A model generated the notes under the pieces. That model had not been told where the DNA came from and did no database searches. It saw only the letters and a program-made list of their open reading frames with translations. This document shows positions 29,558-36,530 of a stretch of DNA of 64,000 nt, piece by piece. Numbering within the stretch: the stretch's first letter is position 1; every line of letters begins with the position of its first letter. This stretch comes from an uncultured Bacilli bacterium. Its GTDB lineage: Bacteria; Bacillota_I; Bacilli_A; RF39; UBA660. Both the position numbers and the translations under genes were made by a program. Location: NCBI GenBank assembly GCA_934167695.1, contig CAKPLP010000005.1:22955-86954 (forward strand), written 5' to 3'.

Positions 29558-29773
29558 ATGGCAGAATTTTATCGTAAAAAGAAAAAGGTTTGTATGTTAT
29601 GTACAGGAAAAACTGTAGATTACAAAGATCCTGAATCTTTAAGAAAATATGTTAATGAAAAAGGTAAAATAGTTCCAAGACGTATTACAGGAACATGTGC
29701 ACGTCACCAAAGAGAAATAGCTCGTGAAATAAAAAGAGCTCGTGCAATCGCTCTATTACCTTATACAAAGTAG
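29558..29773 (+). CDS. rpsR: 30S ribosomal protein S18
   Basis: A 71-aa protein with the conserved S18 core ([11 protein letters not shown]). Confidence 0.9.
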
Positions 29774-29775
29774 TA

Positions 29776-29806
29776 AATTGATAGTAGTAACTATCAATTT
29801 TTTTTA
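29776..29806 (+). terminator. rho-independent terminator after rpsR
   Basis: A perfect 10-bp stem AATTGATAGT / ACTATCAATT with an AGTA loop, followed by T7. Confidence 0.7.
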
Positions 29807-29825
29807 AATAAAATAGGAGAAAAAT

Positions 29826-30965
29826 ATGTTTGAAGATTATAAAGGAGTAATTGATTTAGATTTAGTATTAAAAGAAAGTTATAATTATAAATATGATTCC
29901 AATAATTTAGAAGATTTTTATAATCAAGATTTTATAGAAATGGAAGGAAATGGATTAACGGCAATGTGTTGGATCAAATATCAAGATAATAAATATTTGT
30001 TTAAACCAATGAAAGATTCATGTATTAATATCTGGGGAGAATTACTTTCTAATCAATTAGCAAAGCAAATTGGCATTCCATGTTGTAACTATAGAGCAGG
30101 TAAATTAGGAAATAAATATGGAGTAATTACTGAAAAAATAAATAAAAAAGAAGAAACCCTAATATTAGGAAGTGAAATAATTCAAGAATTTTTTGACTAC
30201 TATCCAGAAATCAAAAAGAAATATATAACAGAAATGCTAACAGATCCAAAAAATAATAACTGTTATAACCAACAACATCATCTTTTTAATCATTTAAATA
30301 ATTTAGAACAAATTTGGTTTATACTATCAAGTTTTGATAATATAAAGAAAAATAATTCAAAAAACTATAATTTTTCAACTTTAAATCAAGAAGCAATTAA
30401 TTCAATTATTACATTTTTAAGTGTAATGTTAATTTTTGATATTGTTACATTACAAGCAGATAGAAATGTGAATAATTGGGCTGTACTTTACAATACAAAG
30501 GAATTTAAGCCATGTCCTTTATATGACAATGCAATATCCTTTGGTCTAGGTTATAATAATATGAAAGAAAGAGTCCATGACTTTAGAAATCAAGTATTAA
30601 ATTATAAATATTTTAATGATGATATAAATATTCAAAGTTATATTTACAAACCATCTCCCCTATTTACTTTGTCTAGTGAAAATAAAAATGAACAAAAACA
30701 AAGAAAACATAATAATATTTTAAAAGTATTCGATGAATTTTTAACAAAACTGGATGATAATTATAAAGAGATAGCATATTATTTAATTCAGAGTATAGAA
30801 GATGAAAACTTCTCTAATTTAATAACAAAAACAGAAATTGAAAATGGAATAGTAATGGATGCAGAAGTTAGATTTTATATAGAATCAACAATGAAATTTC
30901 ATTATAAATATTTAAATGAAATCATAAACAAGCATAAAGTTAGGAGTAGTATTAATGCAAAGTAG
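29826..30965 (+). CDS. HipA-like / atypical kinase-fold protein
   Basis: The C-terminal half has QADRNVNNWAVL followed by PLYDNAISFG. This resembles the HipA_C catalytic loop (DxHxKN) and the APxYD motif. It is not part of the conserved rpsR-rplI synteny. Confidence 0.35.
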   Translation: MFEDYKGVIDLDLVLKESYNYKYDSNNLEDFYNQDFIEMEGNGLTAMCWIKYQDNKYLFKPMKDSCINIWGELLSNQLAKQIGIPCCNYRAGKLGNKYGVITEKINKKEETLILGSEIIQEFFDYYPEIKKKYITEMLTDPKNNNCYNQQHHLFNHLNNLEQIWFILSSFDNIKKNNSKNYNFSTLNQEAINSIITFLSVMLIFDIVTLQADRNVNNWAVLYNTKEFKPCPLYDNAISFGLGYNNMKERVHDFRNQVLNYKYFNDDINIQSYIYKPSPLFTLSSENKNEQKQRKHNNILKVFDEFLTKLDDNYKEIAYYLIQSIEDENFSNLITKTEIENGIVMDAEVRFYIESTMKFHYKYLNEIINKHKVRSSINAK

Positions 30966-31374
30966 TATAGTTGAACAATTTGAAAATCTTACTAATATTC
31001 TTTTAGAAGAAGGCTATGATATAAAAAAAATAAATAGTGATAATTTTAATATTGGCCAAAATAAAATAAAAGAAGGAAATTTATATTTTATTTGTAATAA
31101 TAAAAATGTTTATGCAGCCTTGTTAATCTGGAATAATACATACTGGTGGTCATTATATAAAAATTATGAATTTCAACCATTTAAACAAGCAGTACCTATT
31201 AATAATGAACAAAGAATAGAAGAAAGTAATTACATTATAGAAATGATGATGAATATTACTGAAAGTACAAAAATTAAAAAGGTGTTTCCCAATATTGAAT
31301 CACTAAGTATTGATGAAAAAATAAAAGTATTAAAAAAAATAGGTCTAAATTCTGAAGGATACCATATTCGTTAA
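30955..31374 (+). CDS. hypothetical 139-aa protein, translationally coupled to the upstream kinase-like gene (11-bp overlap)
   Basis: An ORF with no recognisable motifs, co-oriented with and overlapping the preceding gene. Confidence 0.3.
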   Translation: MQSSIVEQFENLTNILLEEGYDIKKINSDNFNIGQNKIKEGNLYFICNNKNVYAALLIWNNTYWWSLYKNYEFQPFKQAVPINNEQRIEESNYIIEMMMNITESTKIKKVFPNIESLSIDEKIKVLKKIGLNSEGYHIR

Positions 31375-31501
31375 ACTATATTTTCTATAAAGGTGATCTT
31401 ATTTTATAACTTCACCTTTTTATCTTGCCATACAACTTATAATATTAGACAATATTTTAAAATTATTATATAATTAATATTAGAAATTACTAGGAGGAAG
31501 T

Positions 31502-32488
31502 ATGGGGATTGTAGAAAGTAAAAGAAAATTTAAAAAGCTAATAAGAAAATCAAAAAATATATTTATAGTTGCACATAAAAACTTAGATCTAGATGCCCTA
31601 GGCAGTTCAATAGGAATGTATAGTATTCTAAAACAAAAAAGAAAAAACTGCTTTATGGTTATAGATGATAAAAATCCAGAAATGGGAGTTTCTAAAGTAT
31701 TACGAGAAATAGAAGGCTGTTATAATATTATTAAAAGTACAGATATTCCAGTTTATCTATACAAAAGAAATAAAAAAAACTTATTAATAATTTTGGATAC
31801 TAATAAAGAATATTTATTACAATCAGAAAATATCCTTGAGTATTTTACAAACAAAATAATTATAGATCATCATGATTTAAATAAAGACTCAATAAGTGAT
31901 GGTCTAATTATAAATGAAGAAAATATGTCAAGCACCTGCGAAATGGTTGTTAATATTTCTAACTTTTATAATATAGACTTACCTCCATATGTATGCACTG
32001 CTCTACTATCAGGAATGGTTTTAGATACAAATAACTTTACATTAAAGACAACAGCAGATACATATTATACAGCTTATTATTTAACTGCTTTAGGAGCAAG
32101 TCCTAAAAAGGTACAATATTTATTAAAACAAGATTTAAGTACCTATGCAGAACAACAAAAGTTAATGGTAAATATAGAAATAAAAGATAAGGTAGCAATA
32201 ACAAAAGGTACTCAATATGTAATTTATAGAAGAGAAGATTTAGCAAAAACAGCAGATACTTTATTATTCTTTAATGATATAGAAGCATCCTTTGTTATAG
32301 GAAAAATAGGAAAAGATGTTGTCGGAGTATCAGCCCGTTCATTAGGTGATTATGATATATCTAATATTTTAGAAGAACTTGGTGGTGGAGGTGACTCCTA
32401 TAACGGTGCAGCTGTTTTTGAAAATAAAACAATCGGAGAAGTAGTAGAAATACTAAAAAAAGCAATAAAAAATCAGGACGGTGAATAA
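31502..32488 (+). CDS. DHH/DHHA1 phosphoesterase (NrnA / GdpP-like catalytic module only)
   Basis: DHH motif (IIDHHD) and a DHHA1 glycine-rich motif ([10 protein letters not shown]). It occupies the gdpP slot before rplI but lacks the TM, PAS and GGDEF domains. Confidence 0.6.
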
Positions 32489-32489
32489 T

Positions 32490-32930
32490 ATGAAAGTAAT
32501 ATTTATAAAAGATTTAAAAAAACAAGGCAAAAAAGGCGAAATTAAAAACGTAAAAGATGGATATGCAGAAAATTTTCTTATAAAAAATGGATATGCTGTT
32601 CAACTAAACAATGAAAATTTAAAACAATATGAAAAAGAAAAACATCAAGAAGAAAAGAAGTTAGAATTAACAAAGAAAAATGCACAAGAATTAAAACAAA
32701 AATTAGATAATACAATAATTGAATTTAAAGTAAGAACTGGTGTCGGAGATAAAGTATTTGGAAGTATTAGTGCTAAACAAATAAAAGATGAACTATCAAA
32801 ACTAAACTATCAAATAGATAAACGACAAATAGAAATGGAAAATGCAATTATTTCATTAGGCTTTCATACAGTAAGAATAAATCTATTCCAAGATATTTAT
32901 GCAAATATAAAAGTTCATGTAATAAAGTAG
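32490..32930 (+). CDS. rplI: 50S ribosomal protein L9
   Basis: [30 protein letters not shown]. The ATG start was chosen over the GTG of the ORF track. Confidence 0.9.
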
Positions 32931-34311: not shown

Positions 34312-35773
34312 AATACTGCTTATATCATTAATAAGTATGTCAGTATTAGCAATGGGTTCAAAAGCATTAAAAACAACTCCTAAAACAGTTTATCATGTTT
34401 ATTTAGAGGGAAAATCTATAGGGCTTATAAAATCAAAAAAAGCTCTCGAAGAATACATTGATAAACAACAAGAAAGTCTAAAACAAAAATATAATGTAAA
34501 TAAAGTATATACATCTTCTGATATAGATATCAAAAAAGAAATAACTTATAGTAATAATATCTTATCTACTAAACAAATATATGAAAAAATAAAAGATAAA
34601 ACATCATTTACTATTGATGGATACAAAATAGTAATAAAAAACACTGGTGAAACATCAACAGATGTAAAAAAAGCAGATAAGAAAAATAAAACAATATATG
34701 TAATAGATAAAAATATCTTTACTAAATCTATTGATACAACTGTAAAATCATTTATAAATACAGAAGATTATAATATATATAAATCTAATAAAAAACAAAC
34801 AATAAAAAATACTGGTAAAATAATAGAAAAAATATATATACAAAATGATATAACTATAAAAAAAGATAAAATTCCAACAGATAAAAAAATATATACACAG
34901 ACAGATGAACTTAGTAAATTCTTATTATTTGGAAAAACTGATAGTGAATCAACCTATACTACTAAAGAGGGAGATACAATTAGTGATATTGCCTATAATA
35001 ATAAAATGTCAAATGAAGAGTTTTTAATAATTAATACCAACTTTAAAGATGAGAATGCATTATTATACCCCGGACAAGTTGTCAATATTGGTATTTTAAA
35101 TCCACAAGTAAATATAGTAGAAGAAGATGAAATAGTTGCATTAGAAGAGAAAAAATATCAAACAGAAACTAGATATGATAATAGCAAAAATGTTGGATAT
35201 CAAGAAGTCGTTCAAGCAGGTTCAAATGGTAGTAATAAAGTTACTCAAAAAGTACAAAAAATTAATGGTGAAACGACTAATATAGTAACAACTAACACTG
35301 AAGAAATAAAGCCTGCAGTTACAGAAATAATTGTTAAAGGTGGTAAAGAAAATTACTATAGTGGCTATGGTAATGCTGTTGCAACAAGAGGAGAATGGGG
35401 CTGGCCAGCAACATGTTCTACAATTTCAAGTCCATTTGGATGGCGTTGGGGAACATTACATGATGGAACAGATATATCAGGTTGTGGTAGAGGATCAAAT
35501 ATATTTGCCGCTCAGTCAGGTACAGTTGTAAAAGTTGCTAGTAAATATGATAATGGTAGATACATAATTATAAATCATAATAATGGCTATTACACCTTAT
35601 ATGCACATTTACAAGGTCAAATAGTAAAAGAAGGTCAAACAGTAAGTAAAGGACAAGTAATAGGAACAATGGGAGATACCGGATTTGCAACAGGAGTACA
35701 CTTACATTATGCTATATGGTATGGTTATCCTTATTATGGAGGAAGAGTTTTAAATGCCATGTCAATGTACTAA
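34283..35773 (+). CDS. secreted LysM-domain M23 (LytM-type) peptidase
   Basis: A signal/TM N-terminus, a LysM-like segment (YTTKEGDTISDIAYNN), and M23 motifs (HDGTDI ... HLHYAIW). Confidence 0.65.
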   Translation: MLKKKKIQTKILLISLISMSVLAMGSKALKTTPKTVYHVYLEGKSIGLIKSKKALEEYIDKQQESLKQKYNVNKVYTSSDIDIKKEITYSNNILSTKQIYEKIKDKTSFTIDGYKIVIKNTGETSTDVKKADKKNKTIYVIDKNIFTKSIDTTVKSFINTEDYNIYKSNKKQTIKNTGKIIEKIYIQNDITIKKDKIPTDKKIYTQTDELSKFLLFGKTDSESTYTTKEGDTISDIAYNNKMSNEEFLIINTNFKDENALLYPGQVVNIGILNPQVNIVEEDEIVALEEKKYQTETRYDNSKNVGYQEVVQAGSNGSNKVTQKVQKINGETTNIVTTNTEEIKPAVTEIIVKGGKENYYSGYGNAVATRGEWGWPATCSTISSPFGWRWGTLHDGTDISGCGRGSNIFAAQSGTVVKVASKYDNGRYIIINHNNGYYTLYAHLQGQIVKEGQTVSKGQVIGTMGDTGFATGVHLHYAIWYGYPYYGGRVLNAMSMY

Positions 35774-36530
35774 TTTAAAATTTAAAACTATGGCAAGTGG
35801 ATCTAAAGGAAATTGTGCCATAGTATTATGTGATAAAGTTAATCTAATCATTGATATAGGTATTTCATATTTAAATTTAAAACGTAAATTGGAAGAAAGT
35901 TATTTAGACTTCTCTTCCTTTTACGGTGTTCTTATTACCCACTCTCATGCAGATCATATAAAAGGCTTATCATCAATAATTAAACATACAAAGTTAAAAG
36001 TATTAATACCAAAAAAAATGTATCAAGAACTACAAGAGATTGTTCCATTAGAAAGAGTTATATTTATAGAAGATAAAAATAAATTAGGCAATGTAGAGAT
36101 AGAACTAATTCATACATCTCACGATACTGCATGCTCTGTCGGTTATATAATTACTTTTGCCAATAAAAGCCTAGTATATGTTACTGATACTGGTTATATT
36201 AATAGAAAATACTTACAAAAAATGGAAAATAAAGATATTTATTTAATAGAAAGTAATCATGATGAGGAAATGTTAATGAATGGTCCTTATCCTCCATTTT
36301 TAAAACAAAGAGTAATCAGTGATCGAGGCCACTTATCCAATAAAACAACTGCAACATATTTAAAACAAATAATAGGTACAAATACTAAATATATATTATT
36401 AGCACACTTAAGTGAAAAAAATAATACAGAGTCTTTAGCATACAACACAACTAAAGAAGTAATAAAAGATAAAAATATCGATCTTATGATAGCAAGACAA
36501 GATGAAGAAAGTACTCTAATAGAGGTGTAA
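35754..36530 (+). CDS. MBL-fold metallo-hydrolase (YycJ/WalJ-like)
   Basis: HxHxDH motif (ITHSHADHIKGL). Its position before rlmH matches yycJ. A GGAGGAAG RBS precedes the start. Confidence 0.65.
   Translation: MPCQCTNLKFKTMASGSKGNCAIVLCDKVNLIIDIGISYLNLKRKLEESYLDFSSFYGVLITHSHADHIKGLSSIIKHTKLKVLIPKKMYQELQEIVPLERVIFIEDKNKLGNVEIELIHTSHDTACSVGYIITFANKSLVYVTDTGYINRKYLQKMENKDIYLIESNHDEEMLMNGPYPPFLKQRVISDRGHLSNKTTATYLKQIIGTNTKYILLAHLSEKNNTESLAYNTTKEVIKDKNIDLMIARQDEESTLIEV

Follow-up and report, generated by a model that had tools for sequence, protein, structure and literature searches.

A two-gene kinase cassette between rpsR and the DHH-rplI-dnaB operon

The stretch analyzed here (the window) comprises 64,000 nucleotides of contig CAKPLP010000005.1 from an uncultured Bacilli bacterium (GTDB lineage Bacilli_A; RF39; UBA660; assembly GCA_934167695.1). 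It carries two overlapping genes, referred to as A and B, of which A encodes a predicted kinase of the Hip superfamily and B a small protein encoded directly downstream of it (Table 1). The two open reading frames (ORFs) share 11 nt, and B is preceded by a Shine-Dalgarno sequence of its own (AGGAG, 8 nt 5′ of its ATG). Upstream of A lie rpsF, ssb and rpsR, the last ending at position 29773, and downstream of B lie a DHH/DHHA1-domain gene, rplI and the gene of the replicative helicase (dnaB). The coordinates and overlap of both ORFs match the ORF list, and the gene order rpsF-ssb-rpsR, A-B, DHH-rplI-dnaB is that given by the original prediction, which had been made from this sequence alone. Since both have homologous families, A and B can be regarded as genuine genes and not as chance ORFs.

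In four related genomes (L048, L050, L051 and L052), rpsR is followed directly by the DHH gene across a spacer of 80-110 nt, which contains a terminator hairpin with a T-run after rpsR and then a promoter, TTAGACA-N17-TATAAT. The DHH proteins of these cassette-free relatives are 55-64% identical to that of the window, and YchF and DnaB, where present on the contig, are 79% and 72-75% identical, respectively. Because rpsR abuts the DHH gene in all four, the insertion of the pair, as originally proposed, is real. In the window, the cassette sits exactly between the same two elements. Its left edge is the rpsR terminator, for which RNA folding gave a free energy (dG) of -9.9 kcal/mol and a z-score of -4.3 relative to shuffled sequences; its right edge is the promoter of the DHH operon, and the sequence TTAGACA...TATATAAT is kept in the same four relatives. 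The A-B cassette was inserted downstream of the rpsR terminator and upstream of the DHH-rplI-dnaB promoter and therefore lies between two operons, not inside one, so the earlier description of an interrupted operon had to be given up. A second, terminator-like hairpin follows B (dG -9.9 kcal/mol; z-score -4.0; none of 200 shuffles equally stable). A GC-based scan called no terminators; the AT-rich hairpins were spotted by eye and then supported by folding. The GC content of the A-B pair is 22.5%, compared with 30.5% for rpsF-rpsR, 28.4% for DHH-dnaB and 26.4% for the whole window.

Gene A is predicted to encode a complete core kinase

By sequence, A is nearest to the HipI-type short kinases: six PDC-M03A models of PADLOC matched it, the best with an E-value of 1.4e-26 over residues 34-353. 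Among the PHROGs, phrog_8728 (function unknown) matched with an E-value of 5e-21. The match to Pfam HipA_C (PF07804) scored 17.2 bits (E 0.004), below the gathering threshold of 30.5 bits, and precomputed HipA_C matches of several A homologues were weak or faint as well. A weak Pfam match of A to tRNA-synt_1d was treated as chance. About 30 full-length homologues of 366-398 residues and 30-58% identity were identified, all from metagenomes or metagenome-assembled genomes (MAGs).

The two motifs that had first pointed to a kinase, ADRNVNNW and PLYDNAISFG, are present at residues 211-218 and 231-240. The key features of A comprise a Gly-rich loop (E40-G41-N42-G43), K60, E72, the catalytic loop D212-R-N-V-N-N217-W and the Mg-binding pair D234-N235. 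In the alignment of 28 members, G43, K60, E72, D212, R213, N217, W218 and D234 are invariant (28/28), and E40 of the Gly-rich loop is also counted among the invariant residues. The kinase core begins at approximately residue 35, and with the Gly-rich loop so near its N-terminus, A therefore lacks the N-subdomain-1 of HipA, as do the short Hip kinases.

The structure of A was predicted with AlphaFold2 (AF2) from an alignment, with a mean predicted local distance difference test score (pLDDT) of 87.3 and a predicted template-modeling score (pTM) of 0.88. When this model was compared with the PDB by Foldseek, the top match was CtkA of Helicobacter pylori (E 3e-10; TM-score of 0.71 on the length of CtkA), followed by HipA and the HipT proteins of Legionella and E. 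coli (probability 1.00 and E 3e-10 to 1e-4 over CtkA, HipA and HipT) and, more distantly, by PI4KII-alpha and the spore-coat kinase CotH, the latter weakly (E 8.5e-4). A search of the PDB by sequence with a profile of the A family returned CtkA as its sole match (E 3e-4), with DRHNGNWGF aligned to DRHPNNWGI and the FD motif that follows. The kinase fold originally proposed for A is borne out by these comparisons. By its modeled fold and conserved catalytic residues, A is a complete CtkA/HipI-like core Ser/Thr kinase.

Position 45, which follows the Gly-rich loop and is Thr in the window, is occupied by Asp in 20 of the 28 aligned members, by Thr or Ser in 6 and by Asn in 2. Phospho-regulated loop sites of this kind include S150 of HipA and S57/S59 of HipT, and an alternation of Ser/Thr with Asp is the pattern that would be expected of such a site. 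More distant DRHxNNWG kinases of 300-360 residues were also observed in similar gut Bacilli (L043:2919-3890, L045:4237-5145 and L044:3851-5271). The kinase of L045 has no B-like partner; an unrelated 112-residue ORF abuts or overlaps the 3′ end of that of L044; and the contig of L043 stops 40 nt 3′ of the kinase gene, so that a partner is possible there.

Gene B belongs to a small protein family

B itself had no direct match in Pfam, NCBIfam, PADLOC or PHROGs, and a word-based search retrieved B alone. Weak Pfam matches of B to Carot_N and TnpB_IS66 were treated as chance. The ORFs 3′ of the A homologues are B homologues with 19-39% identity, and profile searches recovered the family. When 1.84 billion cluster representatives were scanned exhaustively with HMMER, 70 members were obtained at an E-value of 1e-3 or lower, nearly all of them stand-alone proteins or fragments of less than 190 residues. 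One protein matched by the B profile, P0102 (2719 residues), is a repeat-rich CHU_C/T9SS protein and was rejected as a B relative.

Within the family, Y53 is invariant and N48, W65, G135 and Y136 are nearly so, and the last residues follow the pattern N-x-x-G-Y-H-[IF]-[KR]-stop. Three regions can be distinguished: an N-terminal mTERF-like helical motif, a central β region containing Y53 and W65, and the C-terminal G-Y-H tail. Pfam mTERF was the sole family matched repeatedly (11 of 56 B members), in one case with an E-value of 5e-6 and 26.1 bits, above the cut-off of 23.1 bits, and the B-family profile matched a repeat of human MTERF1 over B positions 7-56 with E-values of 9e-6 to 3e-5. The first description of B as a protein without recognizable motifs thus holds for direct database matches, but at the level of the family profile one mTERF-like motif is detected.

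The partners of known Hip kinases were also considered. B and five homologues gave nothing in PADLOC even at E-values up to 10, with no match to PDC-M03B, and Pfam scans of 21 and 56 B members gave no match to Couple_hipA or HIRAN. At the sequence level, a relationship to HipS was rejected because alignment by hhalign with P0031, a HipL with a HipS-like domain, had a probability of 0.45% and no Couple_hipA match was found; a relationship to HipN was rejected on a probability of 0.08% with a genuine HipN (L046) and the lack of a HIRAN match. As judged by these searches, B represents a new small protein family.

Strict pairing, mobility and allele exchange

We examined approximately 35 loci; wherever a locus was long enough to show both genes, B lay directly downstream of A and overlapped it. 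Clustering of the neighboring ORFs distinguished at least 12 contexts, frequently with flanking genes in the opposite orientation and with no conserved gene upstream of A (12 contexts compared). The pair relocates between genomic sites as an autonomous unit. It occurs in uncultured gut Bacilli or 'Tenericutes' MAGs and in Clostridium sp. CAG:451, and its annotated neighbors are housekeeping genes, namely PFOR, ParB, an HD-domain protein, ABC and FtsX permeases, CAT, a pseudouridine synthase and a UvrD-type helicase; a HerA-like ATPase is encoded two genes from the pair in L006. The compact bicistronic layout and the patchy, mobile distribution are as in type II toxin-antitoxin modules. Among phage genomes, INPHARED yielded one distant hipIN-type match, a pair beside the integrase of the Clostridioides phage phiCDKH02 (a C. 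difficile prophage), and no close viral structure was found in BFVD.

In most members of the family, including those in unrelated contexts, A is preceded by TATATTATAAT-N8-12-GGTGAT-N3-5-ATG, from which it follows that a promoter with a very short leader normally travels with the cassette. The form ATTATATTATAAT-N8-12-GGTGAT was observed directly before the start of A in L004, L027, L032, L036, L037, L033 and L008. The window copy lacks this promoter, and its expression probably depends on read-through from rpsF-ssb-rpsR.

One clade keeps the pair at a single site, in the order IscS-ThiI-SASP, A-B, ackA-ackA-DHH-EngB (the SASP-ackA site; SASP, small acid-soluble protein). At this site, the proteins flanking the pair in L026 are 97-100% identical to those in L029, L030 and L034, whereas A is 65% and B 61-63% identical. 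A sliding nucleotide comparison of L026:8001-9528 with L030:8001-9525 gave 94-99% identity in the flanks and 66-79% within A-B, and the drop in identity has sharp edges at the start of A and the stop of B. Divergent A-B within near-identical flanks implies that both coding regions were swapped as one unit, as would be expected for a cognate, co-evolving pair. The DHH protein encoded 3 kb 3′ of the pair at this site was set aside as a different paralogue, approximately 28% identical to the window DHH protein. Between the tandem ackA genes, 1 kb from the pair, lies a second small indel hotspot: a variable ORF of ~219-232 residues with no Pfam match (L003:8797-9492, L008:5622-6281, L020:3382-4080 and L023/L029/L030) that is absent in L001 and L026.

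Conservation of the pair as a core gene pair across the lineage had been named at the outset as an outcome that would speak against a mobile module, and the search for the pair elsewhere gave a divided answer: it occupies at least 12 contexts and is absent from relatives at the window site, but it is conserved at the SASP-ackA site across one clade.

Two disrupted forms of the pair were observed. In L041:758-2446, the first ~100 codons of A are inverted onto the opposite strand (758-1066), with the remainder of A (1153-2010) and then B, which is intact, on the plus strand; this arrangement is either a real, kinase-inactivating inversion or an artefact of MAG assembly. P0124 (154 residues) is an in-frame fusion, A(1-62)::B(64-end), which contains ~90 residues of B and an A part close to the A of the window, and has the appearance of a natural deletion in which the kinase domain was lost.

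Neighboring genes in the window

The product of the gene downstream of the cassette has DHH and DHHA1 domains only, as previously described, and aligns to positions 361-679 of the 838-position GdpP-L9 model PRK14538 (NCBIfam); the transmembrane, PAS and degenerate GGDEF parts of full GdpP are missing. The same short, 328-residue form is encoded directly 3′ of rpsR in cassette-free relatives (L048:2952-3935 and L051:1436-2413). The DHH-only GdpP is, judging from these homologues, a trait of the lineage and a neighbor of the module rather than part of it. The truncation of GdpP was judged to have no connection with the cassette, since the short form also occurs in relatives that lack A-B.

For rplI, the longest ORF (32481-32930; 149 residues) begins at a GTG overlapping the stop codon of the DHH gene; the start is ambiguous, as an ATG 9 nt further 3′ was chosen in the gene calls of identical contigs (146 residues). 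Further along the window, 35754-36530 encodes a 258-residue protein of metallo-β-lactamase fold, 3′ of a LysM/G5/M23 peptidase gene. Its precomputed Pfam matches are Anti-Pycsar_Apyc1 (PF23023) and Lactamase_B_2; it is probably a housekeeping YycJ-like hydrolase and not an anti-defense gene.

Table 1 Features of the A-B cassette and its borders in the window.
Feature	Position	Strand	Description
rpsF-ssb-rpsR intrinsic terminator	29776-29805	+	Perfect 10-bp AT-rich stem AATTGATAGT / ACTATCAATT, 4-nt loop, T6 run
Shine-Dalgarno sequence of gene A	29815-29819	+	AGGAG, 6 nt 5′ of ATG
Gene A	29826-30965	+	379 aa; ORF list
Gene B	30955-31374	+	139 aa; ORF list
Terminator-like hairpin of the cassette	31389-31423	+	AAAGGTGA ... 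TCACCTTT then TTAT, 15 nt 3′ of B stop
DHH-rplI-dnaB promoter	31446-31474	+	TAGACA-17-TATAAT; promoter scan score 11/12
DHH/DHHA1-only GdpP homologue	31502-32488	+	328 aa; Pfam DHH 2.6e-19, DHHA1 2.5e-6

Functional interpretation

Taken together with the layout and distribution of the pair, the predicted kinase fold suggests, at about even chances in our estimation, that A-B is a Hip-superfamily kinase module with a toxin-antitoxin or abortive-infection function, with B as a new inhibitory or regulatory partner. The pair would then work like the kinase-first modules hipIN, hipJS and hipMP. Just as HipA acts on GltX and HipT on TrpS, A would arrest growth as a Ser/Thr kinase whose substrate is an essential translation factor. 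B would bind A and keep it inactive, perhaps through the C-terminal G-Y-H tail or the conserved Trp/Tyr β region, and its mTERF-like N-terminal motif might bind nucleic acid, either to autoregulate the pair or to detect a trigger. If phage infection or the loss of B set A free, growth would stop, and the outcome would be addiction or abortive infection.

Several observations weigh against this interpretation. Position 214 of A is His in 26 of the 28 aligned members and Asn in the window copy and one other, as the original prediction had noted for the window. All 23 contigs that encode the exact RpsR of the window also carry the A-B pair, which indicates that the pair is fixed in the window species. 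At the SASP-ackA site, the pair has kept its place across genomes whose flanking proteins are 57-82% identical (L008, L018, L020/21 and L033), which argues for long vertical retention and fits a physiological role as well. The window copy lacks the promoter usual in the family, with ~20 nt from the T-run of the terminator to the start codon of A. Nor is there a defense-island signal in the small sample of contexts, where the neighbors are mostly housekeeping genes with just a generic UvrD and one HerA-like match, and no relatives of the pair were found in viral contigs (IMG/VR) or plasmids (PLSDB). At the sequence level, B has no HTH (helix-turn-helix), HipS-like or HIRAN domain; its mTERF signal exists at the family level only, the window B with its shortened region giving no direct mTERF match; and its AF2 model was poor (pLDDT 59.5), so that a Foldseek search of the PDB, which gave nothing below an E-value of 0.3, was discarded as uninformative. 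Our literature search found no toxicity, neutralization or defense experiments for the A-B family or for HipI/HipN.

Some of these observations would also be accounted for if A were a physiological signaling kinase, for example in spore formation or stress, and B its regulatory partner or substrate in a clade of spore-forming gut Bacilli, with no role in toxin-antitoxin biology or defense. We regard this as possible, though the less favored explanation. The constant SASP-ackA site, the presence of the pair in all contigs of the window species, the lack of an antitoxin-type domain in B and the housekeeping neighborhood all agree with it, as do the distant relative in L045, a kinase alone without a partner, and the weak resemblance of the fold to CotH. 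However, the pair is absent at the window site in the closest available relatives and occurs in at least 12 unrelated contexts, and cassette-sized alleles have been replaced within DNA that is otherwise 94-99% identical. The family is also narrow (70 B clusters in 1.84 billion), natural knock-out alleles exist (L041 and P0124), and the nearest relatives in sequence are mobile hipIN-type pairs, one of them on a prophage.

The mTERF-like motif would take on a different meaning if B were a new kind of nucleic-acid-sensing subunit of Hip-type kinases that, on meeting foreign or damaged DNA or RNA, for instance, set the kinase free or switched it on, in which case the allele swaps at a fixed site would reflect an arms race with phages of uncultured gut Bacilli and A-B would be an undescribed immune module. 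Such a sensor would parallel the DNA-end-binding HIRAN domain of HipN; we nevertheless consider this version unlikely.

The state of the window copy bears on a further explanation, which we think quite improbable: that it is a domesticated or decaying remnant with little or no activity, persisting without function. The TATATTATAAT promoter is missing, the start codon lies 20 nt from the rpsR terminator, the Asn at position 214 is shared with just one other of the 28 members, and disrupted alleles occur elsewhere. Yet both ORFs are intact and 99-100% identical across all contigs of the window species from many samples, A and B have good Shine-Dalgarno sites, and the other catalytic residues of A are retained. 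Type II PI4-kinases carry Gly at the position that matches His214, so this His is not required across the superfamily. A weak AT-rich terminator would also permit read-through into the pair.

That A is an exported, host-directed effector kinase with B as its chaperone is very improbable: CtkA is the best structural and sole PDB profile match of A and the carriers are gut-associated, but these are Gram-positive commensals with small genomes, A and CtkA are only 13-15% identical, none of the 12 contexts examined contains a secretion system, and nothing nearby is comparable to the type IV secretion system (T4SS) of an integrative and conjugative element (ICE) on which, according to one study, the activity of CtkA depends (PMC5536186).

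Hip-type kinases serve as a main model of persistence and toxin-antitoxin biology, within which the short Firmicute branches HipI, HipJ and HipM are uncharacterized. The A-B pair is restricted to poorly known, uncultured gut Bacilli, and neither gene is called by current tools, as Pfam scores fall below threshold and PADLOC requires a HIRAN partner. If A is toxic and neutralized by B, then B would be a new way of controlling Hip kinases, and the allele replacement at the SASP-ackA site would document how selection has acted on cognate pairs in nature. Were A not toxic, the pair would be a rare case of a Hip-fold kinase recruited for ordinary physiology.

Comparison with known systems

In the Hip classification of Gerdes et al. 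2021, three families of short kinases in clade XI have downstream putative antitoxins: HipI-HipN, HipJ-HipS and HipM-HipP, where HipN combines HipS-like and HIRAN domains and HipP is resolvase-like (PMC8262856). The PADLOC candidate system PDC-M03, a HipA and HIRAN pair, corresponds to hipIN of this classification (PMC8262856). The hipIN pair is the closest to A-B in several respects: PDC-M03 contains the best sequence match for A, its kinase lacks N-subdomain-1 and carries the Gly-rich loop close to the N-terminus, a tightly linked partner gene follows the kinase gene, and the pair is found in Firmicutes and on a prophage. In contrast, B has no HIRAN or HipS-like domain, so the partner is not HipN, and A is longer (366-398 versus 279-321 residues) and ~25-30% identical to HipI-like proteins across about half its length. 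A distant A homologue, P0037, is encoded immediately upstream of a HIRAN protein.

A comparable relationship is seen with hipJS and hipBST, in which a short core kinase without the lid subdomain is combined with, and neutralized by, a small non-HTH protein (HipS), of the ~100-140-residue size range that also includes B; in hipJS, the small gene is 3′ of the kinase gene, as in A-B. Unlike these systems, A-B has no third, HTH (HipB) gene as found in hipBST, and B has no sequence similarity to HipS or Pfam Couple_hipA. The order of genes in the window had originally been likened to reversed, HipT/HipS-like systems. The reversal itself stands, the kinase coming first as in hipIN, hipJS and hipMP and not as in hipBA, but the likeness does not extend to B, which resembles neither HipS nor HIRAN proteins in sequence. 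With HipA of E. coli K-12 (hipBA), A shares the kinase fold, the equivalent catalytic Asp and Asn and the Mg-binding Asp; it differs in lacking the ~100-residue N-subdomain-1, in having no upstream HTH gene (HipB) and in the reversed gene order.

The closest solved structure to A is that of CtkA (JHP0940), a Ser/Thr kinase of H. pylori (PDB 3akj, 3akk and 3akl), from which A differs by its low sequence identity. We know of no B-like partner of CtkA. CtkA has been described as a pro-inflammatory factor that is ICE-encoded and T4SS-dependent (PMC5536186). PDC-M66 (DS-6) also pairs a HipA-like kinase with a small accessory protein, DUF3037, and is reported as a validated two-gene defense system that alone protects against phage (PMC12548924); A matches no PDC-M66 model, however, and B is not a DUF3037 protein. 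For B, the comparison is with human MTERF1 (PDB 3mva, 3n6s and 5crk), one repeat of which is matched by the B-family profile; B has a single motif in place of a repeat array, and in the window this motif region is shortened.

As judged by sequence comparison, A-B shares its type of kinase and its kinase-first layout with hipIN, hipJS and hipMP, and its partner differs from that of every named family. The pair would accordingly add an eleventh gene organization to the Hip kinases, in which a CtkA-like core kinase is combined with a partner unrelated to HipB, HipS, HipN, HipP or HipR.

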